Source: Cyanidioschyzon merolae
Lineage: Eukaryota
DNA length: 64,000 bases
Direction: 5' to 3' (one strand)
Assembly (NCBI GenBank): GCA_000091205.1
Contig: AP006502.2
Shown here: one piece after another, positions 13,486 through 64,000 of the stretch
Numbering within the stretch: position 1 is the first letter of the stretch
How the letters are laid out: every line of letters starts with the position of its first letter
Translations under genes and position numbers: made by a program
The notes under the pieces: generated by a model
What the model saw: the letters and a program-made list of their open reading frames with translations, nothing else
Told to the model about the DNA's origin: nothing
Databases searched by the model: none

Positions 13486-16400
13486 ACCTCGGAGATGAAC
13501 AGGCCGGGCGCTCTTCACACACGAAGCCAGCTCTGTGCGGTGCAGGTCGCTCGCTTGTGAGTGTATCGCATATCTGCGGCACTTTATTTGTGTGTCTTGA
13601 GATCTGTGTGTCTATATGCTAGAGTATCAGCGGGTCGTCAGGCGCGTGTGTGGCTCCTCGAGCATGCGCTTCCCTGATCGCTCGACTCGGGGCCCTGCGG
13701 GCATTCAACATTCTCGACGCATCTGCGAGACGTGTGTCATGGATCCAACCGGCATTGCACCTAGCCGCTGGCAAGGCGCCTCTGAATCACTGGACATACG
13801 TAAGCATCGTGCTCGAGCTGTTGAGCTCTTTTCGAAGGGAATCTACCGACAACATGGCTTGCAAAGTCATCGGGGCGGGACCACACAACAGGGGCTTTGT
13901 TTGGACCCTCTTTTCAAAAACGCAACCAGAGACGGCACTTGGATGCATTCATTCAGCTTTCCGCACACGTAACAGGTTGCAGCTATGCACAAGCGCCTCG
14001 TACGCGACCGGTCATTAGCGAGATACCTGCGTAGAATCGCGGTCTTCGTAGAGAGCATGCGTTCCGTGCGACGCTCCAAAATGACAGCGTATTCTGTCCA
14101 CGATTCTGCCTGCTCGTCATTTGGCTACAGACCGTCGGCTTTGTGAGCGCAAGCTGAAAGCGTTCACGCAATGCGCATGATGCATCATCAATACAACCAG
14201 CCAAGCAAGACGGGATTCCTGACCATGGACTAGATTTCGCGTCAGGGGAGTCTGTCGAAGAAGCAATGCGTGCGAGGAGGACGTGAGCCAATCACGATCA
14301 TCCTCCATCCGCCCGGTCTTTCTCTGGGGTATTGAGTGAATGCTCAATCATTCGGAATAGAAGCCATGACGAAAAGCACCAAGAGACAAACGTGGGGTCA
14401 CTGCAGCGGCGTGCATACCAGCCCAAGCGCTTGCTGGGGCAACCAGTGCTTGCTGAGCGAACGCTGCGTAACGCTCTTAGCGACAGCAGTTTTAGACTCG
14501 CGATCGGCAGTGGCACACTCGGCAGGTCTTTTGGGCGAAGGATCAGGACGCATCCGGGATGCACTACTGCACACCTGCGGTACCAGAGAGGAACGAGGTT
14601 CCCGGACAGACCGTATTCCCGCTAGTGGAGGGTGCCGTACCCGCGCCTCGGCAATGCCTAACGAGGTTGCTGTTCAGGACTTGAATCTCTAGAATGCTTC
14701 CTACAGATGACGAGACTTTGGACTCAGAGCAGCGCACTTGCAAGAACATGTATCAACACGGTAAACGTGTAATTGTTTGTTTTTCGCACAGGTATTCAAA
14801 ACGTGGATTGTATATTATAGAGCGATGAAAGGTCGCGAGATGACTTTATGCTGGCTGGCTGGCTGGCTTCGGAGCAAAACGCCTTTACTTGTCCAGACCA
14901 GACATTGTGCGGACAGCAGACGTATGAGGTACCCCTCTCGTAGTGCGTTCCTTGAACGACTTGCACCGACCACAGCAAGTTTCAAAAGCTATCTACATGA
15001 GCGTCCCGTCTTTCATGTATTCCAGCCCGGATGATATCCATGACGTACCTCCAAAGAAGCCGCTGGATGAGAGGTTTTCGAACGGTTGATACAAATTGCG
15101 GTGAAGCGACACGAGTGAACGAAGAAGATGGCAGGCTACTACTTGTAGCTGCAGCACCTTGAACAGCGCACGATCGATTTCGCACTGCAACGCGAAAGTT
15201 TATTCCACCAGGGGCATATTGCCGTCTCAATGTATGAGACTTTATTCAGTAGACTTGGTAGATTTGTGTATGGATAATTCAAAACGGGGGCAAACTGCTG
15301 TTCATAGAAAAAAAGCAGCGGGGCTGTCGGTACTATTAGCCCTGGCTACGACTCGGTTATGTAGTTACTTATACATCGCCAAGAATTGTCTAATCGTTCA
15401 ACATCGCATGCTGCGGGGAATCACGTTTTGCGACCTATTCGTTTCACGTTCTTCTTCACTGGCCTTAGACGTTGCCGCTTTCCATCACTATAATGTGGTC
15501 ACGGAGTATGCAGATGAGATCGGCAATGAGCAGTGCTACGTGTGAGCGATGGCTCCCGGTTCCAATCGAGTAGGGGGTATGTCTGTCGGTCTCTGTGCTA
15601 CGCCCGATCCAGCGGTTTGGGCGCTGTTTCGAACGCTCACGGCAGTCGCAGTGCACAATGGAACGTCGGAAAAGCAGAATGTCGGAGATGAGGCACGCGA
15701 TGTGACTGGTGGAAATCGCAGAGCTGGTACGCAATGACGGCAGATTTCCCGGGTGTCGGTACTCGTCGTGAATTCCCGGATCATTGAGCCGTGAGCACAT
15801 TCCATCGATCAGAACGAATTTGCGGTGGGTTGCTCGACACTTGCTGGCCTGGCGCCGGATAGAAACACAATTCAAACCAGTTTCTCATTCCAGCGTCTGT
15901 GCAGAATGGACTGCAAGAAACGGGAATAAACGTGTATCCGTAGTCGGGAAGACTGCGGCGCATAGTTTGTTTACGATCAATAAAACGAACGAAATTCCTG
16001 TTGAGTAGGGTGATGCATACCTCGCCCGCACAAGCGTAAGATACTACAATGGCTACGCTTTTGATACAGGCGTCGAGGGGTATCGTGCCAGGCCCCTGCA
16101 TCCCCTTGTCTGTCGGGGCGGTACTGCGATGGGCAGTAGCGTCGGCACCAGCGACAGAACCTATAGCAAGAGTTCATTCTACGTGAGTTTCCGATGTACA
16201 ATACGTTGTTTTGGCTGCAGTGCACCGGTGAGAGCACGCATGTGCCAATGCGGGGTGTCGGACACGTGTCCTTTATCGATCGGTGCAGCGTCTCGCGCGG
16301 TGCACGCATCGCGCTCAGTGCGCGCACCTAGGAGATCAGGCAGGCGTGAGACACGACGCGCATGCCGCCGTTGAAGGGAAACGTAATCGTGATCAGCAGC

Positions 16401-16511
16401 GTCTAGCTCTCGTGTTAAAGTTGTATTTTCGTTGACTTTATGGGCAAGTATAGTTTTCAGTTCAATTGTGTTTGAAAACTCAAACAAGTGTATTCTAGTG
16501 TTTTGTCGCAG

Positions 16512-16519
16512 TATATAAG
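16512..16519 (+). promoter_or_regulatory. TATA box (tatataag) about 50 bp upstream of the element ATG
   Basis: gcagTATATAAGaggagcg is conserved in copy D (41455-41462) and degenerate in copies A and B. Confidence 0.4.
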
Positions 16520-16570
16520 AGGAGCGTTCAAAGAGGGTTCTTTTTCAAAAAAAACTAAACAAGGAAAGTT

Positions 16571-18911
16571 ATGAAAAAGCAAGTCGACGATCCTGGAGGC
16601 CCAGTGTCGCCGGCTGCCAGAAAGAAAACAAAACACAGTGCCGAGTCCAGAAGAAGAGGAGAAGAAAAAGAAGCAAAAGGAGGAGGCTCTACGTCGAGTG
16701 CTGCAAGAAAGACGAATGTACGACGAGAAGGTGGTGAAAGCTGGTCTTCTTGGATATATCAAGGATCCGTACAGGGAAAATTTGCGAGACGCTATCAGAA
16801 AACGTGTCGACTCGTACTCCAAGAGTACTGTCAAGGCGTCGTCAGGACTGATGCACTCGGCGAGGGAGATGTATCGCGACGTGACGCACATGCAAACAGT
16901 CGAGGTCCCAGACGAGTTGTTCGACACGACCTTTATTCGATACTTGATGCTCGGTACAGGGGAGATGCGAAGGGAAAATGAGCGAGTGCACGCCCTCTGC
17001 CAAAAATACTCCTTCTACAGCTTCGAGGGCACTCGATACAGGGTTGACTCGTGTATTTACGAATACGGAGCGATAAAGTACCCCACGAACCTGAATAAAC
17101 ATTTGACCGTGAACCTCGAACGTTTCATGATACGCGCCGTGTTTGCACTCTACCCGGGCATCTCTCGCAAAGCGATATGGATCATCATCGATAGCATCAA
17201 AAACGATAGTAAGAATGAACAGGTGATCGAATTTGTTCACGAGAAGACATTATGCAGGAAAACGAATGAAGCTTCTGTAATCCGTGCGGCTATACAAGAG
17301 CACCGTGCAGCACTGGGGCTTGCGAGTCCAGCAGAAAAGATATCAGAGTTGAAAAAAGATAAGAAAAGATACCATCGCCTCGTCCTGCGCTATTTCGTGT
17401 TTTTGGACCGAGAGCTCGAACGCAAGGCGGAAATGAAGCTGAGTGAAGAGACAAATGAATATTGGGAGAGACGGAAGCCTGTCCTAATAGGGCAGCGCTT
17501 CAACGTGGCTCCAATGTCCAATATCAAGTCACATTTCCTGACGATCGATTCCGGCGTCGTTCATGGCATCATGAGGGAGATCAGTCCCGAGTTCAATGTT
17601 AACAGGGAGGAGTTCTCCGGCGAAAACCGGGAGACGCACTGGAAGAATATCTTCGATTCCAAACGTCTGAGAGTGAGCAAGCAAAAGTTGTTCACTGAAA
17701 TGATTGAAACCGATGGAGTGGCCTTGTGTATACACTATCGGCGGTTGAAGAGAGATCGGCCAGTCCCTCCCTCGGCCGCGCCCGTGACGAAGGATGAAGA
17801 AAAGGAGGAGGCCGGTCCTGCGACACAGGAGGTAGACGATAACGACCTTGTCGTTGGCGCGGCGGAGCATGAAGATGAGAAGGAGGCGGATCCTGTGATG
17901 CAGGAGGTGGAGGATAACGGCCTTATCGTTGGCGCGGTGAAGCTTGATGAAAACAAAAAGGCAGATCCTGCCACGCAGAGAGTGCAAGATAATGACTTTG
18001 TCGTTGGCGCGGACCCTGGGAATACGAATATCATCACCATTGCAGCACCCAAGCGTGCGGAAGATGGTGCTGATGGTAACTTGCGTCAGAAAAACATGCG
18101 TCTTTTGAGGTTCTCGAGAGCGAGATACTATCGAGAATCGGGAATGATGAATGCAAGGAAGAAAATCGAGACATGGAATGCAGGAATGAAGGAGCACCTG
18201 GACGCTATGAGCGAGGTGACGAGCCGAGGAGCGGACTTTGAAGCTTTTCGGGAATTCATGGAACTTCGTGTTGCGCATTGGGATGCACTGTGGGAGCAGT
18301 ATACCAAGCCTCGGTTGGCTCGTCTGCTTATGAATCTATACGGGTAGAGGCAGCGGGCATTTGCGAACTTTTTCAATCAGTTGAGCGCCCTCAAAGAGGA
18401 TCAAAGTCAGAGGCTGGTAGTAGCATACGGGGCAGGGCGCTGGGCGCCCAAGAAAGGCACTACGCCAGCTCCATCGACGAGAACGTACAAGGAGTGTGCG
18501 CGGCGTTTTGTTAAAATTCCTGCAGATGAGTTTCGAACATCGTATACACATCATGAACTGGGATGTACACTTCAGACGGTGGAGATAGAAAAGTGCCAAC
18601 GGAGTCCTGAGGAAATAGCAAAGTACGGACCGCTGACGGAAGAGCAAATGGAAAGAAGGGCGAAAGTGCGAGGGCTACTCGCATTAGTAAGTACAACCAG
18701 TGATGGAAAGAAACGGATGGAGTCTGTGAATCGAGATTGTAACGCCGCTATCGATATAAGGAAATGTGCGGTGCTAGAGAAAAGACCTCCAGAATGGACA
18801 AGAGAGAACTTTATTGGACAACCTCTCAAAGTCGAACTATATGAGAAGAAGTTGGAAGCAGTAGTGGGTGGCCGGTCGCAAAAGTCTGGGAGGCGTCTAC
18901 ACCTCGGATGA
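16571..18911 (+). pseudogene. Fanzor/TnpB-like RuvC nuclease gene (copy C), nearly intact: one 2-bp poly-A frameshift and one in-frame TAG
   Basis: MKKQVDDPGGPVSPAARKK at 16571 shifts frame in the run aaagaaaacaaaac, where copy D has two more A. From 16638 to 18911 there is a single reading frame apart from the TAG at 18345-18347 (NLYG*RQRAF). RuvC-I is [19 protein letters not shown]. After it comes IPADEFRTSYTHHELGCTLQ...EKC, an E..TS motif plus a Cys/His cluster. RuvC-III is RMESVNRDCNAAIDIRKC. The N-terminus is Lys-rich and looks like a nuclear localisation signal. Confidence 0.6.
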
Positions 18912-18920
18912 AAGCGTTAT

Positions 18921-18985
18921 GTCTAGGGCGGGTTTCTCGCCACTAGTGTGCACGGTCGGCATCGTTCGACTGCGTTTAGGTTCTC
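18921..18985 (+). ncRNA. Candidate omega-RNA-like scaffold, or other conserved 3' end structure, of copy C
   Basis: The 3' tail begins right after the ORF stop and is conserved in all four copies (gtctagggcg-gg...cgcc-ac.a.tgt.cacc/ggt.ggc..cgtt.g). A GC hairpin, GGCG-ggtttct-CGCC, is present here; copy D has a lengthened stem, GGCGCG-ggtca-CGCGCC. Confidence 0.3.
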
Positions 18986-19216
18986 TCTTTTGCAAATGAA
19001 ACACATCCTCCATCAGACTTGCGAAAACGACGCAGCGCTCCTTGTCGTGCGAAGGCGTTTCCGCGCTCGTGCCTGCAACGCTGTACATACCCGTGTGTCT
19101 ACAGAGGCCGGCGCCATGCAACCGCCCTGGCGAGCAGCTGTTTATCCGGAGATGCTTATAGCATCTTGAACTCGGAGTCGAGCTTCGTTTTCCGTTGTGC
19201 GCAGATGGTGGCGTGG

Positions 19217-21364
19217 TCACACGATGCAAGCTGCCGCCGCCGCCGCTGCTGCAGTCGTCGAGGTGCTCGGTCCCGAAGAATGCCCAGTCTGACCCGCATT
19301 CCAGGTCGCAGCGCTCGCTGGATCCACAAAGCGAGTTTCGAACGCTTCTCGCTCTGCCTCGTAGTCGATGAGCACTGTTTGCCCCTCCTTGCCAGGTAAA
19401 TCAAACTGACAATCAAGGAGCACCCGTTCCAAGATACCCCGAAGACCTCGTGCACCAACGCCTTTGTGAACAGCCTCGCGTGCCACTGCCCGCAGCGCTT
19501 GATCCGTAATGTGCATATCGACGCCACTCATGCGAAACATCTCTCGAAACTGACGCACGAGTGCATTGCGCGGCTCGGTGAGCACCTGGACCAACTGCGG
19601 TTCAGTGAGCGCCCGGAGATTGACAACGATCGGGAGACGTCCCACAAACTCGGGTACCAGTCCGTATCGAATGAGGTCCGTTGACTCGACATGATCCAGC
19701 AGTGCATCGTCGACAGCGTCGGAAGCAGCCACATGCGCACCGAAACCAATCGAAGTCGCTGCTAGTCGATGACCAACGATGCGCTCCAGGCCGGAAAACG
19801 CACCGCCACAGATGAAGAGGATGTTGCGCGTGTCCATGGGAATGTACTCGGCACGAGGATTCTTCCGACCGCCTTTCTCCGGTACATTGACGATCGAGCC
19901 TTCCAACATTTTCAGTAGGGCCTGCTGGACGCCCTCGCCGGATACATCGCGAGTGATGCTGGGGCTCTCTGACTTGCGCGAGATCTTGTCGATCTCGTCG
20001 ATATAGACAATGCCCCGTTGGGCCAGATTCAAGTCGAAATCCGCTGCTTGGAGCAAACGGTGCAGAATGGATTCAACGTCCTCGCCAACGTAGCCGGCTT
20101 GGGTCAGGGTGGTTGCGTCCACCATAACAAAAGGGACCCGGCACTTGCGCGCCAGGGATTTCGCCAGCAGCGTCTTTCCGGAGCCGGTCGGCCCCAGCAA
20201 CAGAATATTCGACTTTTCGAATTCGACGCAGTGATCGAGGAGGCTGTTGAGTGTCAACGATGCAGCCGATGAGGCATCACCCATTCGGTACGGAAGCGAA
20301 CCAGGCATACAACCGGCGTTGCCAGTCCCGTAGGAGGCCGCACCGGGCGTCGAACTGCGCAGTTCCAGAATCGGCCCAGGGCGGCTCTTGACCGACTCCC
20401 GTGACGTCGCATGTGCGTCATCTGCACCAGTCGACTCATGGATGTATGGGGCACGTGTTTTCGTGCTCGCAGTCAAGTCGAGGTCACTGCTTCGAAACGC
20501 TGCTTCCGTTAGGTCGTCAAGCACAATCGGGCGGCGAGACATGTTCGACTCCGCCGGGGATGCCTCTGCATCACTGTCGAGCGGCATGCGGCGAGGACGA
20601 ACGTTTCCCGATGACCACGAGGATGACGGGTTTGCGTTACTGCTGTCGATGGAGTGGATTGCTGGAGGAACGCGTGTACCAGCACCCGATGTGCGTCGTG
20701 ACCCATGCATATCCGACATCATCATCAGCAGAATGCGCCCTGCGGAGGACTGGAGCGACGGTTTCCCTGAAATCGTTTGGGATGTGTTGCCGCTGGTGCT
20801 CGTGCTACTGCTCGTGCTACTGTTGCTACCACTGGTACTGTTATTGCTCAAACTCTCTTCGAAACCGGGCCAACCAAAGCGGGTGCTGGTGGTATTCTCG
20901 TTTTCGCTGGTGCCACCCATGCCCACGGTTGAAGCAGCGGAGGCAGCCCGCACGCGCTCCATCAGTTCACTCGCGAGCACCTTCTTATAGTGATTATGGG
21001 TGGCGACTGCCAAGACGCGTTTCGCCTTTTCCTGTCCTATGCAGTACTCGTTCAGGTGGTCGAAAAGCGCACGCGGCGTCGGGAGCGCCGCAACCCGCTG
21101 TCTCAGGAGCCGCGTATAGGTCGCCATTAGGTGACCGTCCCGCACTGCAGAACCGTAACGAAACTCGTCGGCGTCCTCCCAGCTTCCTGAACGAGTACCG
21201 CTTGTGCTCAAGCACTGGACACCGCCCTGGCGCCGACACCGGTGAATGGTACCGACTGCGGCCAAACGAGGCTCCACTGACTTTTGTCCCAGAGAGCACC
21301 AGGCTTTCCAGTCTACCAGATAACTCCGTTGGGAAAGCACCGCATCGACCCGAACCAACGACAT
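19217..21364 (-). CDS. clpX: ATP-dependent Clp protease ATP-binding subunit ClpX (organellar type)
   Basis: Walker [46 protein letters not shown]. Walker B and sensor region [17 protein letters not shown]-terminal part ...[15 protein letters not shown].... There is a long Ser/Thr/Asn-rich insertion and an N-terminal extension. The track start is GTG; the first ATG is at 21364. Confidence 0.85.
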
Positions 21365-40492: not shown

Positions 40493-41514
40493 GAATTCTT
40501 CTTACTGTAGGGCTAGCGCTAGTAGGCGCTGTACGCTGTCGGAGGTCATTTGTTCGACGTCTCAGACAGGCGAACGACGGCGCGTAGCTCCAGGCGTTGC
40601 CCCGGGAACCTTTACGGACGAGGTCGTTTACGAGGCTCAGCGTCCGAAGACCATAAAACGAAAGTATCATCGGAACTTGGCTCGAAAGGAATCTGGGCAG
40701 AGTGCTGACGCTGTATACGATTTTTGAATGACGACAACAACAGCGACAACCGGCCTCATGGCATGGTCAGAAATCGGGACTGTCGAGCAGTGGGACGCAC
40801 GAAAACCGCACAATTCAAACCAGTTTCTCATTCCAGCGTCTGTGCAGAATGGACTGCAAGAAACGGGAATAAACGTGCATCCGTAGTCGGGAAGACTGCG
40901 GCGCATAGTTTGTTTACGATCAATAAAACGAACGAAATTCCTGTTGAGTAGGGTGATGCATACCTCGCCCGCACAAGCGTAAGATACTACAATGGCTACG
41001 CTTTTGATACAGGCGTCGAGGGGTATCGTGCCAGGCCCCTGCATCCCCTTGTCTGTCAGGGCGGTACTGCGATGGGCAGTAGCGTCGGCACCAGCGACAG
41101 AACCTATAGCAAGAGTTCATTCTACGTGAGTTTCCGATGTACAATACGTTGTTTTGGCTGCAGTGCACCGGTGAGAGCACGCATGTGCCAATGCGGGGTG
41201 TCGGACACGTGTCCTTCATCGATCGGTGCAGCGTCTCGCGCGGTGCACGCATCGCGCTCAGTGCGCGCACCTAGGAGATCAGGCAGGCGTGAGACACGAC
41301 GCGCATGCCGCCGTTGAAGGGAAACGTAATCGTAATCCGTAGCGTCTAGCTCTCGTGTAAAAGTTGTATTTTCATTGACTTCATGGGCAAGTGTAGTTTT
41401 CAGTTCAATTGTGTTTGAAAACTCAAACAAGTGTATTCTAGTGTTTTGTCGCAGTATATAAGAGGAGCGTTCAAAGAGGGTTCTTTTTCAAAAAAAAACT
41501 AAACAAGGAAAGTT

Positions 41515-43801
41515 ATGAAAAAGCAAGTCGACGATCCAGGAGGCCCAGTGTCGCCGGCTGCCAGAAAGAAAAAACAAAACACAGTGCCGAGTCCAGAAGA
41601 AGAGGAGAAGAAAAAGAAGCAAAAGGAGGAGGCTCTACGTCGAGTGCTGCAAGAAAGACAACTGTACGACGAGATGGTTGTGAAAGCTGGTCTTCTTGGA
41701 TATATCAAGGATCCCTACAGGGAAAAGTTCCGAGGCGCTATCAGAAAACGTGTCGATTCGTACTCCAAGAGTACTGTCAAGGCGTCGTCAGGACTGATGC
41801 ACTCGGCGAGGGAGATGTATCGCGACGTGACGTACATGGAAACAGTCGAGGTCCCAGACGAGTTGTTCGACACGACCTTTATTCGATACTTGATGCTCGG
41901 TACCGGGGAGATGCGAAGGGAAAATGAGCGAGTGCACGCCCTCTGCCAAAAATACTCCTTCTACAGCTTCGAGGGTACTCGAAACAAGGGTGACTCGTGC
42001 ATTTACGAATACGGAGCGATAAAGTACCCCACGAACCTGAATAAACATTTGACCGTGAACCTCGAACGTTTCATGATACGCGCCGTGTTTGCACTCTACC
42101 CGGGCATCTCTCGCAAAGCGATATGGATCATCATCGATAGCATCAAAAACGATAGTAAGAATGAACAGGAGATCGAACTTGTTCACGAGAAGACATCATG
42201 CAGGAAAACGAATGAAGCTTCTGTAATCCGTGCGGCTATACAAGAGCACCGTGCAGCACTGGGGCTGGCGAGTCCAGCAGAAAAGATATCAGAGTTGAAA
42301 AAAGATAAGAAAAGATACGATCGCCCTGTCCTGCGCTATTCCATATTCCTGAACGGAGAACTGGAACGCAGGGCCGATATGGAGCACGGTGTGGAAGCAA
42401 ATGCAGTGCCGGAGAAACGGGAAGCTGCGCTTCTGGCGAGGCATTTCAACGTCGTTCGGTTACGCGAGATCAAGTCCCATTTGTGACGATCGACTCCACA
42501 GTCTTTCAGGACATCATGAAGGAGATCTGTCCGGATTTCGATGTCAGCAGGGAGGTGTTCTCCGGTGAAAACCGGGAGACGTTTGAAATCGAAGATATTC
42601 TGCTTCGATTTCAAACGCCTCAAAGTGAGCAAGCAAAAGCTATCCGCGGGGATGATCGAAACCGATGGCGTAGCCATGTGTGTTGACTATCGGCGGTTGA
42701 AAAGCGATCGTCCTGGCCCGTCTTCGATATTGCCCGTGACGAAGCATGAAGATGAGAAGGAGGCGGGTCCTGCGACGCAGGAGGTGGAGGATAACGGCTT
42801 TATCGTTGGCGCGGTGAAGCATGATGAAAACAAGAAGGCGGATCCTGCCACGCAGAAAGCGCAGGATAACGACTTTGTCGTTGGCGCGGACCCTGGGAAC
42901 ACGAATATCATAGCCATCGCAGTACCGAAGCGTGCGGAATATGGTCACGACGGTAACTTGCGCCAGAAGGACATGCGTCTGTCGAGATTCTCGACAGCGA
43001 GATACCATTGAGAATCCAGTATAATGAATGTGAGGAAGAAAATCGAGACATGGAATCCAGGAATGAAAGAGCATCTGGAAGCGATGAGCGAGGTGACGAG
43101 TCGCGGAGCGGACTGTAAAGCTTTTCGGAATTTCATGGAAGTTCGTGTTGCGCATTGGGATGCACTGTGGGAGGAGTATACAAAGCCCTGGTGGGATCGT
43201 CTACGTATTAATCTATACTGTCGGAAGCAAGGTGCATTCAAGAAAATTTTCGATGAGTTCAGCGCCTTGAAGGAGGATGAAAGTCAGAGGCTCGCATTAG
43301 CGTACGGAGCAGGGCGCTGGGCTCCGAAAAAAGGGTGTACACCAGCTCCAACTACAAGAACATACAAGGAGTGCGCAAGGCGTTTCGCTACGATACCTGC
43401 AGATGAGTTCCGAACATCGTATACACACCATGGACTGGGGTGCACATTTCAAAAGGTCGAGATGGGAAAGTGTTAACGGAGCCCTGAAGATATCAAAAAA
43501 GTACGGACCGCTGACAGAAGAGCAAATGGAAAGAAAAGCGAATGTTCGAGGGCTATTCGCATTAGTAAGTACAACCAATGGCAAGAAACTTATGCGATTC
43601 CTGTATCGCGACTTTGAGGCCGCTATCAATATAAGGGCATGTGCGGTGCTGGAGCATAGACCTCCAGAGTTGACACGAGAGAATTTTATGGGGCAACCTG
43701 TCAAAGTGGGACTATATGAGAAAACTATGAAACCAGTAGCAGGTGGCCGGTCGAGAGAAACTGGGAGGCGTCTGCAGCTCAGTTGGCGACTTCGTGTCTA
43801 G
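41515..43801 (+). pseudogene. Fanzor/TnpB-like nuclease pseudogene (copy D): intact N-terminus, two in-frame stops and one frameshift
   Basis: MKKQVDDPGGPVSPAARKKKQNTVPSPEEEEKKKKQ... runs continuously to a TGA at 42484-42486. The second segment (42541-43011) holds RuvC-I, ...[25 protein letters not shown], and ends at the stop at 43009-43011. A frameshift near 43440 follows, then ...IPADEFRTSYTHHGLGC.... The final piece (43403-43801) has ...RFLYRDFEAAINIRACAV, which is RuvC-III. Confidence 0.6.
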
Positions 43802-43875
43802 GGCGCGGGTCACGCGCCACTACTGTACACCGGTGGCGTCGTTCGACTCTCGAACGGCGTTTGGTACGTGAGGAA
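43796..43875 (+). ncRNA. Candidate omega-RNA-like scaffold, or other conserved 3' structure, of copy D
   Basis: gtctagGGCGCGggtcaCGCGCCactactgtacaccggtggcgtcgttcgactc... A 6-bp GC stem replaces the 4-bp stem of copy C, which is consistent with a conserved hairpin. Confidence 0.3.
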
Positions 43876-45869: not shown

Positions 45870-47500
45870 GAAAGATGCTCGTTTCACTCGATGAGATTTC
45901 AGTCGGGAGACATGGCAGACTTGTATGTAGACATTGAAAGAGAGGTAAACCGCTGTTCGTAAGGAGGAGACGAGCGAGCATGCCGATATCATCCGTTCGC
46001 GGGCGATTCAATCGTACGATCGCCTAAACAGGTAACACAATACGCAGGACCTAACAGCACCTCATCCTTCGTCGAGGCACTCGTCGGGTTTCCCGCTTCC
46101 TATGATGTTCCGTGCTGCTTTCAGGAAACGCTGGTTTCCATCACTCAGAATCTGCCAAGGAGTATGCAACTGAGGCTGGCATTGAGCCGCTCTTCGTGCC
46201 CGCCTATTCTTTCTGGCTCACTCCGATTGAGGGCGTTCCCTCTGTTCCCGAACGCCATTGTTACGTTAACGGATCATTAGACGGGTCACTCGCTTCTACG
46301 ACACCGTTCTTTGAGGAATCGTTCTCTGCACTCAACAATCCTGAGCCGCTGTGTTGCTTTTCTGCTCGTTGGCGGGATGCGGTGGAGGCGCGCGCTTCGG
46401 TCTGTGGGTGTTCGCGCTACGGAAAACGCCATGAAAAGGCACCTGAGACAGCACAGATCCATGGAGACATAGAAGGAGCGAGTTCCGGAGCCACCGTCTA
46501 CCCAGTGCCTCTGGAATCCGACGAGAAAGCGTACATAGCGTACAGCGACGATACCCATGACTCCCCGCCATGTCAAGGACACGGCGATGGAAGAGCTGGT
46601 CTCCGCGGGCAAGTACGCAGCATTCGAACAACTCTGCGAAGGGCAATCAGGAACGCGCCCAGGTTTTCTTGCCTACAGGGATAGGCTGAAGGAAATGTAC
46701 ACGGGCGACAGACGCTGATGGAATATCAATCAGCACGCACTTTGTGAAGCCGGGACCTCTGTCGCGACATTGGACGCATGCCCGAGCCCTCACAGTAGAG
46801 GAAGCGAAGCGAACGCTTTGTGGCGGGCGTGGATCCCGCGTCGAAGAACATCACATTCATCGCCGTATCGCTAGATATAGCGGACGCAACCAAAGACCTG
46901 ACCTGAAACCAGGTGAAGCCGTTTAACTTTCCCACTACGCGATTTCATTGGGATTCGGGTACGGTGGAAGTCCGGAGGTATCCGAACATCTGGAACGACA
47001 AGGTCGGAACCGATCCCGATGCACCGAGCACCGTACGGAGCAGAGGCGAATGCTTCGTGCGCTTCATTCAGGAAGTACGCGAGTGTCGAAATGAACCATA
47101 TGGGCGGTTGCTGGCAGGATAACCTGGGATCACGCTGAACTCGGCAACGGTATCGGTAGAACGTAGACACGACTCGCGCATTCGCCACTTCCCTCAACGG
47201 GCCGGAAACCCAGGTGATCTCAAAGTCGTGTCGTTTGGTGATACAAGTCAATGGCCTTAGACGTGATGCAATGCCCAGAAGCCCGCACTCCCGGTCAAAC
47301 GGCCAGACCGAACAACGAGTCCAGGAATCGAGTATCTGCGAGACCCATCGATGCGTTCAGCACGACATGTGTACGCATCACGAGCATGCGGGCCCGCTGA
47401 ATCTGGTAGAAAGAAGAGCGCGACACATAGACGGATGCACGAGAAGGTGCACAGTGAGGTGACTGAGCGTCAAATGGCGAGGCGGTTGCAGGTGGGAAAC
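45870..47500 (+). mobile_element. Tc1/mariner/IS630-like DDE transposon remnant, repeat copy 1
   Basis: The high-identity core 45953-47499 matches 62454-64000. The ORF 46112-46684 begins ...SGNAGFHHSESAKEYATEAGIEPLFVPAYSFWLTPIEG. This matches the DNAxxH ... LPPYSPxLNPIE C-terminal motif carrying the final acidic residue of DDE transposases; the first Asp is replaced by Gly. The N-terminal two thirds of a transposase are absent. Confidence 0.5.
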
Positions 47501-48060
47501 GTGCTATGGTGTGATTCCAAAAGGCATTCATGTGCGCTGGGGCACGCCCCGCATTGAGCACTGAACGTGTCGAACGGCAACCGATGATGACCCGCGCTTC
47601 CGGAGCGTCCAGCTGCTTTGTATGGCGCGAATGTTCAAGCGAATCGTTTCATAGCTCGTGTAGGCACTGTGGAAAATGCGGAGCACGTTCGAGAGCGTAA
47701 AATTAGGGTGCCGGAGAGAAGGCACTGGATTCTCGCCTGGATCCAGGCAGTCGTGTAGACCGGTTCAGCAATCCATCAAGGCTGGGTCACCTTGTTTAGA
47801 GATAAACCAGGGCGGATTTCCCTTTGGGAGACTGGTGAAACAACAAGGGATACGATTCCTCGACATTGCAGGGTATACATGAAGAAACATTTTCATTTTT
47901 GCATGCACTGCGCTCTTTATGGGGCACAAATCCGAATCCATATGAGGTTTCATGTTGAATGATCACCGAACCCTAACATGCCACATGTAAGCTTCCCGCA
48001 AACTCTTTCAGGATAAAGTTCTCATAGAGGCTCGCTGCATCGCGAGCCTCGGAGAGGGAC

Positions 48061-52322: not shown

Positions 52323-52465
52323 GCAGCGTGCGCCTCAGGGTCACACAAAGTTCGCATCTTGACTTCATTGTCTAGTTTCTTGGGAGCATACTGCAACACG
52401 CTGCTCTGTGCACGCCGGAGCGCATGGCAGGGACCCTGCTGTCGAGAACGCTTCTCATCCAAAAG

Positions 52466-52640
52466 TCCGTAAATATACGAGGGAAATCGATCCAGCTGCA
52501 GTATCAGTGCATCACCACTATTCCCGAGGTATCCCGAGCATCGCAACGTATATCCCAGAGTCCGTAAATATACGAGGGAAATCGATCCAGCTGCAGTATC
52601 AGTGCATCACCACTATTCCCGAGGTATCCCGAGCATCGCA
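52466..52640. repeat. Tandem duplication of a 95-bp unit (1.85 copies) just downstream of BASS
   Basis: Unit tccgtaaatatacgagggaaatcgatccagctgcagtatcagtgcatcaccactattcccgaggtatcccgagcatcgca... at 52466-52560. It is repeated exactly at 52561-52640. Confidence 0.9.
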
Positions 52641-62369: not shown

Positions 62370-64000
62370 GCACTGGTTTTCGCCTCAGTCGATGAGTCTT
62401 TATCGGGAATGACTGATTCATCTGTATACGGGTATTCAAAGGGAGACAACCTGCTGTTCGTAAGGAAGAGACGAGCGAGCATGCCGATATCATCCGTTTG
62501 CGGGCGATTCAATCGTACGATCGCCTAAACAGGTAACACAATACGCGGGACCTAACAGCACCTCATCCTTCATCGAGGCACTCGTCGGGTTTCCCGCTTC
62601 CTATGATGTTCCGTGCTGCTTTCAGGAAACGCTGGTTTCCATCACTCAGAATCTGCCAAGGAGTATGCAACTGAGGCTGGCATTGAGCCGCTCTTCGTGC
62701 CCGCCTATTCTTTCTGGCTCACTCCGATTGAGGGCGCTCCCTCTGTTCCCGAACGCCATTGTTACGTTAACGGATCATTAGACGGGTCACTCGCTTCTGC
62801 GACACCGTTCTTTGAGGAATCGTTCTCTGCACTCAACAATCCTGAGCCGCTGTGTTGCTTTTCTGCTCGTTGGCGGGATGGGGTGCAAGCGCGCGCTTCG
62901 GTCTGTGGGTGTTCGCGCTACGGAAAACGCCATGAAAAGGCACCTGAGACAGCACAGATCCATGGAGACATAGAAGGAGCGAGTTCCGGAGCCACCGTCT
63001 ACCCAGTGCCTCTGGAATCCGACGAGAAAGCGTACATAGCGTACAGCGACGATACCCATGACTCCCCGCCATGTCAAGGACACGGCGACGGAAGAGCTGG
63101 TCTCCGCGGGCAAGTACGCAGCATTCGAACAACTCTGCGAAGGGCAATCAGGAACGCGCCCAGGTTTTCTTGCCTACAGGGATAGGCTGAAGGAAATGTA
63201 CACGGGCGACAGACGCTGATGGAATATCAATCAGCACGCACTTTGTGAAGCCGGGACCTCTGTCGCGACATTGGACGCATGCCCGAGCCCTCACAGTAGA
63301 GGAAGCGAAGCGAACGACTTTGTGGCGGGCGTGGATCCCGCGTCGAAGAACATCGCATTCATCGCCGTATCGCTAGATATAGCGGACGCAACCAAAGACC
63401 TGACCTGAAAACAGGTGAAGCCGTTTAACTTTCCCACTACTCCATTTCATTGGGATTCGGGTACGGTGGAAGTCAGGAGGTATCCGAACATCTGGAACGA
63501 CAAGGTCGGAACCGATCCCGATGCACCGAGCACCGTACGGAGCAGAGGCGAATGCTTCGTGCGCTTCATTCAGGAAGTACGCGAGTGTCGAAATGAACCA
63601 TATGGGCGGTTGCTGGCAGGATAACCTGGGATCACGCTGAACTCGGCAACGGTATCGGTAGAACGTAGACACGACTCGCGCATTCGCCACTTCCCTCAAC
63701 GGGCCGGAAACCAGGTGATCTCAAAGTCGTGTCGTTTGGTGATGCAAGTCAATGGCATTAGACGTGCTGCAATGCCCAGAAGCCCGCACTCCCGGTCAAA
63801 CGGCCAGACCGAACAACGAGTCCAGGAATCGAGTATCTGCGAGACCCATCGATGCGTTCAGCACGACATGTGTACGCATCACGAGCATGCGGGACCGCTG
63901 AATCTGGTAGAAAGAAGAGCGCGACACATAGACGGATGCACGAGAAGGTGCACAGTGAGGTGACTGAGCGTCAAATGGCGAGGCAGTTGCAGGTGGGAAA
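62370..64000 (+). mobile_element. Tc1/mariner/IS630-like DDE transposon remnant, repeat copy 2, truncated by the window end
   Basis: 62454-64000 is about 98% identical to 45953-47499 at a constant offset of 16,501 bp. The ORF 62613-63185 is the same transposase-tail ORF with a few substitutions. Similarity decays gradually to the left of 62454 (45953 in copy 1). Confidence 0.5.

Follow-up and report, generated by a model that had tools for sequence, protein, structure and literature searches.

The omega-RNAs that guide Fanzor proteins have been experimentally defined for only a handful of elements. The omega-RNA of SpuFz1, from the element Spu-1 of Spizellomyces punctatus, has a 75-nt scaffold followed by a guide of 14-15 nt that is drawn from the variable flank (Saito et al. 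2023, PMC10432273; structure 8gkh). The scaffold consists of two stems and a 6-nt linker. The RuvC/NUC part of the protein grips the first stem (SL1) and the linker, whereas stem 2 touches the protein at its base only, and its distal part is deletable (PMC10432273). In three Fz1 structures, SL1 is invariably seven base pairs long, and what follows it is free to vary (Xu et al. 2024, PMC11423790). A Fanzor1 element of Cyanidioschyzon merolae, CMe-1A, has been described with about 150 copies that are about 80% identical to their consensus (Bao & Jurka 2013, PMC3627910). It is about 3 kb long, lacks terminal inverted repeats (TIRs), belongs to an unknown class, and has its 5' 635 bp in common with a short element, TE-N2_CMe (PMC3627910). 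This description predates omega-RNAs and describes no 3' tail, and in the literature we found no omega-RNA described for the Cyanidioschyzon Fanzor family. Here, we analyse such a tail in a stretch of 64,000 nucleotides of C. merolae contig AP006502.2 (the window) and compare it with the known systems.

The repeat and its Fanzor1 protein

The window contains four copies of one repeat of 2.5-3.1 kb, with a single long ORF in each: copy A (about 168-2528, minus strand), copy B (about 3270-5800, plus strand), copy C (15866..18985, plus strand, with a core from about 16306 that most copies have in common), and copy D (from 40809 or 41249 to 43868, plus strand). The boundaries of copy C, an element of about 3 kb without TIRs, come from BLAST of the window against itself and against further loci. 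Copies A and B face each other head to head across about 740 bp. Copy B, at about 74% identity, represents a divergent subfamily, whose 5' extension is longer and different and also occurs in the loci L085 and L006. The neighbouring genes are eukaryotic and uninterrupted (a cullin with a neddylation domain, a GNL3L-type GTPase, a ClpB-like AAA protein, and an amine oxidase), and the GC content of the window is about 55%. The element fits CMe-1A, as matched to the published description (PMC3627910) rather than to the Repbase consensus sequence: both are about 3 kb long, have many copies, lack TIRs, carry a 5' segment like TE-N2_CMe, and sit in an intron-poor red-alga setting of about 55% GC.

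The ORF of copy C (16638..18926, plus strand) occupies a single frame, which is interrupted by an in-frame TAG at 18345-18347, where other copies have a sense codon, and by a premature TGA at 18909-18911. Since the reading frames of A, D, and the metagenomic copy L001 extend to a TAG within GTCTAGGG, the ancestral stop of copy C is the TAG at 18924-18926, and the TGA five codons before it is a secondary mutation. The initial annotation had placed a conserved tail right after the nuclease stop and missed that the ancestral stop lies inside this tail. The ORFs of A, B, and D carry several stops and frameshifts. Because each ORF has stops and/or frameshifts, all four copies of the window are pseudogenes, of which copy C is the least damaged. 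The ORF of the metagenomic copy P0001 is open over 752 aa, yet it stops about 35 codons early. Just upstream of the RuvC-I motif, the Fanzor ORF contains a tandem repeat of 75 nt (25 aa) at 17788-18012 in copy C and at 4146-4450 in L001, with the motif ...Q-x-V-x-D-N-D-x-V-V-G-A... and about three repeat units in C versus about four in L001.

Profile comparison identifies the nuclease of this repeat as a bona fide Fanzor1. When a profile built from 48 diverse members of the family was searched against the PDB, its best match was PpFz1 from Parasitella (9cf0, E = 2e-19), and it also matched SpuFz1 from Spizellomyces (8gkh, E = 1e-12) and GtFz1 from Guillardia (9cer, E = 1.5e-7), with the RuvC-I (DPG), DEF/YxTS, and RDxNAA motifs kept in the alignments. 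In the alignment, the catalytic E of the family falls on the DEYKTS motif of SpuFz1. Among the 48 members, D484 and E656 do not vary, and R724, D725, and N727 are nearly invariant. The RuvC motifs are present in the ORF of copy C, including NRDCNAA. Scans of the ORF and its homologues against Pfam and NCBIfam gave nothing significant, and a Cas12f1-like_TNB match was found in six of the 48 distant relatives. A phmmer search of the PDB with one protein returned nothing, and a shallow profile of 13 sequences produced a marginal match to the RuvC-I of IscB only. An AlphaFold2 model built on a 40-sequence alignment (pLDDT 43.8, pTM 0.23) was too poor for fold comparison. The family comprises 2508 representatives at 50% identity (E <= 1e-3, among 1.84 billion representatives searched), typically of 600-700 aa, and one source metagenome of the close relatives is a Yellowstone hot-spring sample. 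Over the last 300 nt of the ORF, the mean pairwise identity of 53 non-redundant copies is 0.86, 0.88, and 0.75 at codon positions 1, 2, and 3. This pattern indicates purifying selection on the ORF while the family diversified, and thus that the family was active as a protein-coding unit.

Two further repeats were seen in the window. A second repeated element, at 45922-47700 and 62423-64000, has two copies that are 95-98% identical, the second being cut by the window end. Its product is distantly Fanzor1-like, frameshifted, and 25-33% identical to the family representatives P0071 and P0123. The covariance model of the tail presented below does not match this element. An 89-nt direct repeat unrelated to the Fanzor elements lies at 52457-52640, in two tandem copies 95 nt apart with 98% identity.

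Extent, structure, and conservation of the 3' tail

The decamer GTCTAGGGCG occurs exactly three times in the window, at 18921 (plus), 43796 (plus), and 245-236 (minus), for a chance expectation of about 0.13. We fetched 80 further loci with a C-terminal protein fragment and built a covariance model (R1) from 36 metagenomic tails with a hand-specified structure. This model matches copy D at 43799-43868 with 67 bits, copy A at 168..242 on the minus strand with 56 bits, and copy C at 18924-18983 with 39 bits. The region that follows the ORF of copy B (5715..5800, plus strand) retains faint sequence similarity only: the model gives no hit there, even without filters, and its predicted fold has no advantage over shuffles (z = +0.52). 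Hence, copies A, C, and D keep the tail that the initial annotation attributed to all four, and copy B has lost it. The spans proposed there also change: 190-245 is too short for copy A, whose tail reaches 168, and 43796-43875 is 7 nt too long for copy D.

The tail measures 66-70 nt in C, D, and A, and 63-67 nt from the TAG to the collapse of homology. Its end is abrupt. Among the 53 non-redundant copies, which come from hot-spring metagenomes, the mean pairwise identity drops from about 0.6 to about 0.27 at 18986-18990, in agreement with the boundary near 18985 annotated for copy C. BLAST of the interval 18600-19100 of copy C against the 80 loci gave alignments that end at or before 18974 in 79 of them. 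The exception, L002, is the orthologous locus, with 98.6% identity. The consensus tail, TAG-GGCGGGTTTCTCGCC-ACTACTGTACA-CCGTTGGCGTCGTTCGA-CTT-TCGAACGGCGTTGATGGTG followed by unrelated flank, is longer than that of copy C, because C and L002 lack about 8 nt of it, and with them the 3' arm of the terminal hairpin. Past the element end, the flank of copy C (18986..19005, plus strand), with an identity of about 0.27 among copies, would supply the guide if the tail acts as an omega-RNA scaffold, by analogy with the known systems. The flanks of 41 copies have no common motif.

We also looked for a similar tail in a distant homologue, the P0032 family of Fanzor1 (35% identical; loci L086-L088), which proved uninformative: homology between its copies extends only some 18 nt beyond the stop. 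In contrast to the CMe-1A-like tail, the guide-RNA scaffold of this family must therefore lie partly within the ORF. One copy of this family adjoins a gene for a DDE_3 (Tc1/mariner-type) transposase.

Four parts can be distinguished in the tail across the 53 copies: SL1, a linker, a second hairpin (SL2), and the abrupt loss of homology into the variable flank. SL1 of copy C (18924..18945, plus strand) is predicted to fold as UAGGGCGGG-UUU-CUCGCC(A)CUA, with the stop codon in its stem, and that of copy D (43799..43822, plus strand) as UAGGGCGCG-GGUCA-CGCGCC(A)CUA. The GGCG...CGCC hairpin of the initial annotation thus exists, but it is larger than was described and includes the stop codon. Seven pairs of SL1 are kept in 69-100% of 55 copies, whereas two apical pairs vary. 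Compensatory changes are found at pairs 1, 2, 8, and 9. The stem-lengthening change that had been noted in copy D is confirmed as a true double change, from G.U to C-G at the eighth pair (pair 8-21, CG:2). The linker, of 5-6 nt, reads GUGUGC in copy C (18946..18951, plus strand) for a consensus CUGUA(C). It is modelled as unpaired, and its identity (0.86) is on par with that of codon positions 1 and 2.

SL2, which the initial annotation missed, is a terminal hairpin of 10-19 bp and is the predicted dominant structure of the tail. The base of this hairpin, CAC(C)...(G)GUG, takes in the final nucleotides of the element. It is intact in copy D (43829..43865, plus strand), where it reads ACCGG..GCGUCGUUCGA-CUC-UCGAACGGCGU..UGGU with the element end at about 43868. 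What copy C retains of it (18952..18983, plus strand) is the 5' arm. The 3' arm was lost through a deletion of about 8 nt after CGACUGCG, which is evident in the alignment with 77 other copies and in the covariance model, where copy C has 3 nt for 11 of the model. Copy A has a weakened SL1 and a degenerate SL2 that carries a 6-nt insertion. Two loci with SL2 sequences unrelated to the others (L033 and L031) nevertheless have hairpins of 10-15 bp at the same position.

Relative to dinucleotide shuffles, intact tails have z-scores of -3 to -5.7, with -3.4 for copy D. The z-score is -1.6 to -1.8 for copy C, whose tail is not significantly structured because the 8-nt deletion breaks SL2, and close to zero for copies A (+0.1 to +0.6) and B. 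A sliding z-score profile over the 53 copies reveals two structured segments only, SL2 and one inside the ORF; SL1 alone is too small to show up in such scans. The segment in the ORF (18739-18799 in copy C) has a mean z of -2.0 over the 53 copies, with hairpins GCCGC...GCGGU and CUGGAG...CUCCAG over the codons of RuvC-III and VLEKRPPE. Its stems are nearly invariant, and a 5' extension of the omega-RNA in this place is inseparable from coding constraint.

Conservation along the tail is patterned. The mean pairwise identity is 0.85-0.88 in the SL1 stems and linker, 0.59 in the SL1 loop, and 0.63 in SL2, which is below the 0.75 of third codon positions. SL2 is thus poorly conserved in sequence while its pairing is kept. 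In 45 of the 53 copies, folding is more favourable for the sense strand than for its antisense (Wilcoxon p = 4e-8). G.U makes up 21% of the pairs and is the majority state at five positions. Conserved G.U pairs are valid on the sense strand only, and the strand asymmetry depends on these five inherited positions. We considered whether an excess of G.U over A.C (205 versus 63 overall) could prove selection at the RNA level and rejected this argument, since the asymmetry vanishes (71 versus 60, not significant) once the five inherited wobble positions are removed. Equal numbers of sporadic G.U and A.C are expected for copies that decay neutrally after insertion.

Covariation, element ends, and competing readings

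We consider it likely that the tail encodes the scaffold of the omega-RNA used by the Fanzor1 of the TIR-less CMe-1A family, a role for which the initial annotation had proposed it as a candidate. This reading gains from the profile matches to Fanzor1, the position of the tail, and its layout of two stems plus a linker. The main rival is a signal at the DNA level, which may coexist with a role in RNA, as in IS200/IS605: the tail, and especially SL2, would be a right-end single-strand hairpin for the enzyme that mobilises CMe-1A, similar to the hairpins at the right ends of Helitron/Helitron2 or IS200/IS605. Several observations make this conceivable. The element lacks TIRs and is of unknown class, and its hairpin extends to the very end. 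The strand asymmetry described above does not separate RNA from top-strand DNA, because G.T wobbles are tolerated in the hairpins of single-stranded DNA.

The ends of the element bear on this point. No TIRs were found in four full-length copies. The left ends that could be recovered were few, about eight, and fall into at least three types of 5' extension; from so few and heterogeneous ends, no motif shared by the flanks emerged that would define a TAM or TSD. The 5' ends are heterogeneous or truncated among copies, while the 3' ends are uniform, and this recalls the one-ended transposition of the Helitron2 that carries Fanzor1. Copies C and D have an extra 5' segment (15866-16306 and 40809-41249, 98-99% identity) found in no other recovered copy. 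It is probably the TE-N2_CMe-like 5' part of CMe-1A; the 635 bp common to these two elements would explain why C and D share it. From 5' to 3', C and D become less alike, with identities of 96%, then 79-87%, and finally about 82% at the 3' end, which suggests a mosaic or gene conversion. The most conserved 5' non-coding block, CCGCCGTTGAAGGGAAACG (16365-16383 in copy C, and equivalents), can form a 4-bp hairpin, CGTT...AACG, with a compensatory CGCT...AGCG in L006. The block resembles the sequence of an SL2 arm in direct orientation and may be a left-end signal, which would also suit the reading as a signal in DNA.

Yet, inspection for the hallmarks of Helitron and Helitron2 found neither a 5' TC or T, nor a 3' CTRR, nor an ATIR-like recurrence of the 5' terminus upstream of the hairpin. 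The element ends in ...GGTG, and the 3' hairpin is the feature it has in common with Helitron-type ends. Neither the element nor the window showed a HUH or RepHel gene. Moreover, a DNA signal leaves unexplained the conserved SL1 and linker, which resemble the protein-contacting parts of Fz1 omega-RNAs, and since both roles coexist in IS200/IS605, a role in DNA would not exclude one in RNA. We therefore regard this reading as unlikely in its own right. A bolder combination of the two is a little less probable still: CMe-1A would be the eukaryotic counterpart of IS200/IS605-type single-strand transposition, in which the right-end hairpin doubles as a signal in single-stranded DNA, for a mobilising enzyme of the HUH type or another type, and as stem 2 of the omega-RNA, with the left hairpin and TE-N2_CMe as partners. 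If true, this system would offer a naturally compact scaffold of about 66 nt from a thermoacidophilic host.

The conservation of the tail could also be passive, with copies descending from one element and hairpins that are incidental. Covariation is informative in this respect. In the model-fitted alignment of 55 copies, 75.8% of cells pair, versus 33-62% when the partners are slid. The covariation score is 0.140, versus at most 0.086 in slid controls and an average of 0.118 in shuffles, none of which reached 0.140 in 500. Changes on both sides occur at 16 of the 28 pairs, in an alignment that is fitted to the model and made of phylogenetically related copies. Many stem pairs are invariant or vary on one side only. 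The support from covariation in this larger set of copies, which had been named as a check, is thus positive and above both controls but modest, and it depends on the model: RNAalifold on a plain MAFFT alignment of the 36 tails did not recover the stems, because indels shift them out of register, and for this reason the hand-specified structure and covariance model were used. The only pairing RNAalifold returned is a long-range one between two nearly invariant motifs, CGCC in the 3' arm of SL1 and GGCG in the 3' arm of SL2 (alignment columns 17-20 with 64-67), which could be an alternative conformer. An Rfam search of 18000-19300 with E-values up to 10 identified no matching family. Passive conservation fits the facts that the copies are dead or decaying, that sporadic mismatches have no bias of G.U over A.C, and that much of the signal could be inherited from few ancestors. 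It is at odds with the double changes in excess of shuffled and slid controls, with the uneven conservation along the tail (stems and linker above third codon positions, SL1 loop and SL2 below them), with the hairpin being retained by subfamilies whose SL2 sequences differ, and with z-scores down to -5.7 being confined to the tail and one segment of the ORF. The patterned conservation and the retained hairpins make it very improbable.

That the tail might be a plain 3' UTR of the Fanzor mRNA, with hairpins for 3'-end formation, termination, or mRNA stability and no role in guiding, suits its sense-strand location immediately behind the stop codon and the stable hairpin at the end of the transcription unit, but we give this the least credence, because the conserved block stops precisely where the transposon does and not at a poly(A) or termination signal, with unrelated flanks, because its layout and length match those of characterised Fz1 omega-RNAs, and because a 3' UTR would need no strongly conserved single-stranded linker.

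The predicted scaffold and the biology of the family

The omega-RNA reading rests in large part on the comparison with known systems. As in Spu-1, the element has about 2-3 kb and a single ORF, for a Fanzor1 only. Its predicted RNA shares with the omega-RNA of SpuFz1 a layout of two stems plus a linker of 5-6 nt, a stem 2 whose base is conserved and whose distal part can vary or be dispensed with, and a guide that would come from the flank. The distance from the stop codon to the right end is about 75 nt in that system and 63-67 nt here, and the proteins are related at the profile level (E = 1e-12). The differences are that Spu-1 has 30-nt TIRs and a CA/CATA TAM, whereas TIRs are absent here, that the RNAs have no similarity in primary sequence, and that the stop codon lies inside SL1 in our element. 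PpFz1 and GtFz1 (9cf0 and 9cer; PMC11423790) also have a 7-bp SL1, which contacts RuvC/TNB in both. PpFz1 resembles our case in having one further stem only before the guide, although its SL2 has 4 bp instead of 10-19 bp. GtFz1 differs by its three further stem-loops and by an omega-RNA that overlaps 17 codons of the ORF. The initial annotation had expected about 150 nt of the ORF in the RNA; the overlap that we find is limited to the stop codon.

More distant systems present parts of the same picture. The omega-RNA (reRNA) of TnpB in IS200/IS605 elements, such as ISDra2, is a right-end RNA with a guide taken from the adjoining flank, as we propose here by analogy. The right-end region of ISDra2 also has a DNA hairpin, and its nuclease is a RuvC enzyme of the ancestor type. 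Its scaffold, however, overlaps more than 100 nt of tnpB and has a pseudoknot, and mobilisation depends on the Y1 transposase TnpA, for which no gene was seen here. The fRNA of CrFNuc-1, carried by Helitron2 in Chlamydomonas (Jiang et al. 2023, PMC10530073), also belongs to an algal Fanzor1 and is a conserved and structured RNA that derives from the 3' UTR, as is predicted for our element. The CrFNuc-1 elements are likewise non-autonomous, with a 3' terminal hairpin and variable 5' ends, but they have Helitron2 asymmetric terminal repeats, a TTTT target, and many introns, none of which was found here.

From what is observed, namely the family membership of the protein and where the tail lies, where it ends, how it folds, and how it is conserved, a mechanism can be proposed in which transcription, processing, protein binding, the use of the guide, and the TAM are modelled on SpuFz1, PpFz1, and TnpB. 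It would involve 1) transcription of the element through its right end; 2) folding of the last 66-70 nt into SL1, of 7-9 bp and including the UAG stop, a single-stranded linker of 5-6 nt (CUGUA), and SL2, whose base CAC...GUG would close at the last nucleotides of the element; 3) use of the next 15-20 nt or so, from the flanking host DNA, as the guide; 4) binding of SL1 and the linker by the RuvC/TNB surface of Fanzor1, and of the base of SL2 by WED/RuvC; 5) cleavage by Fanzor1 of guide-matching DNA beside a TAM; and 6) a target that would be the empty donor or a homologous site, so that cutting would favour the retention or copying of the element.

In the window this system is dead. The segment 18921-18985 is a decayed relic, with half of SL2 deleted and two nonsense changes in the ORF, and only copy D keeps an intact-looking scaffold, beside a badly broken ORF. 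The tail is an expected feature of a known system and, among these decayed transposon copies, an ordinary one. Its value lies in a concrete prediction, which gives the boundaries, both stems, and the conserved linker of a scaffold in a Fanzor1 family of the Cyanidiophyceae that is old and abundant. This family was recorded in 2013, when RNA guidance had yet to be discovered, and its host, a thermoacidophilic alga, is amenable to genetics. Should any copies be active, they might encode a heat-tolerant nuclease with a short guide scaffold. Finally, that a Fanzor1 element without TIRs would keep an RNA layout like that of SpuFz1 bears on how such elements move.
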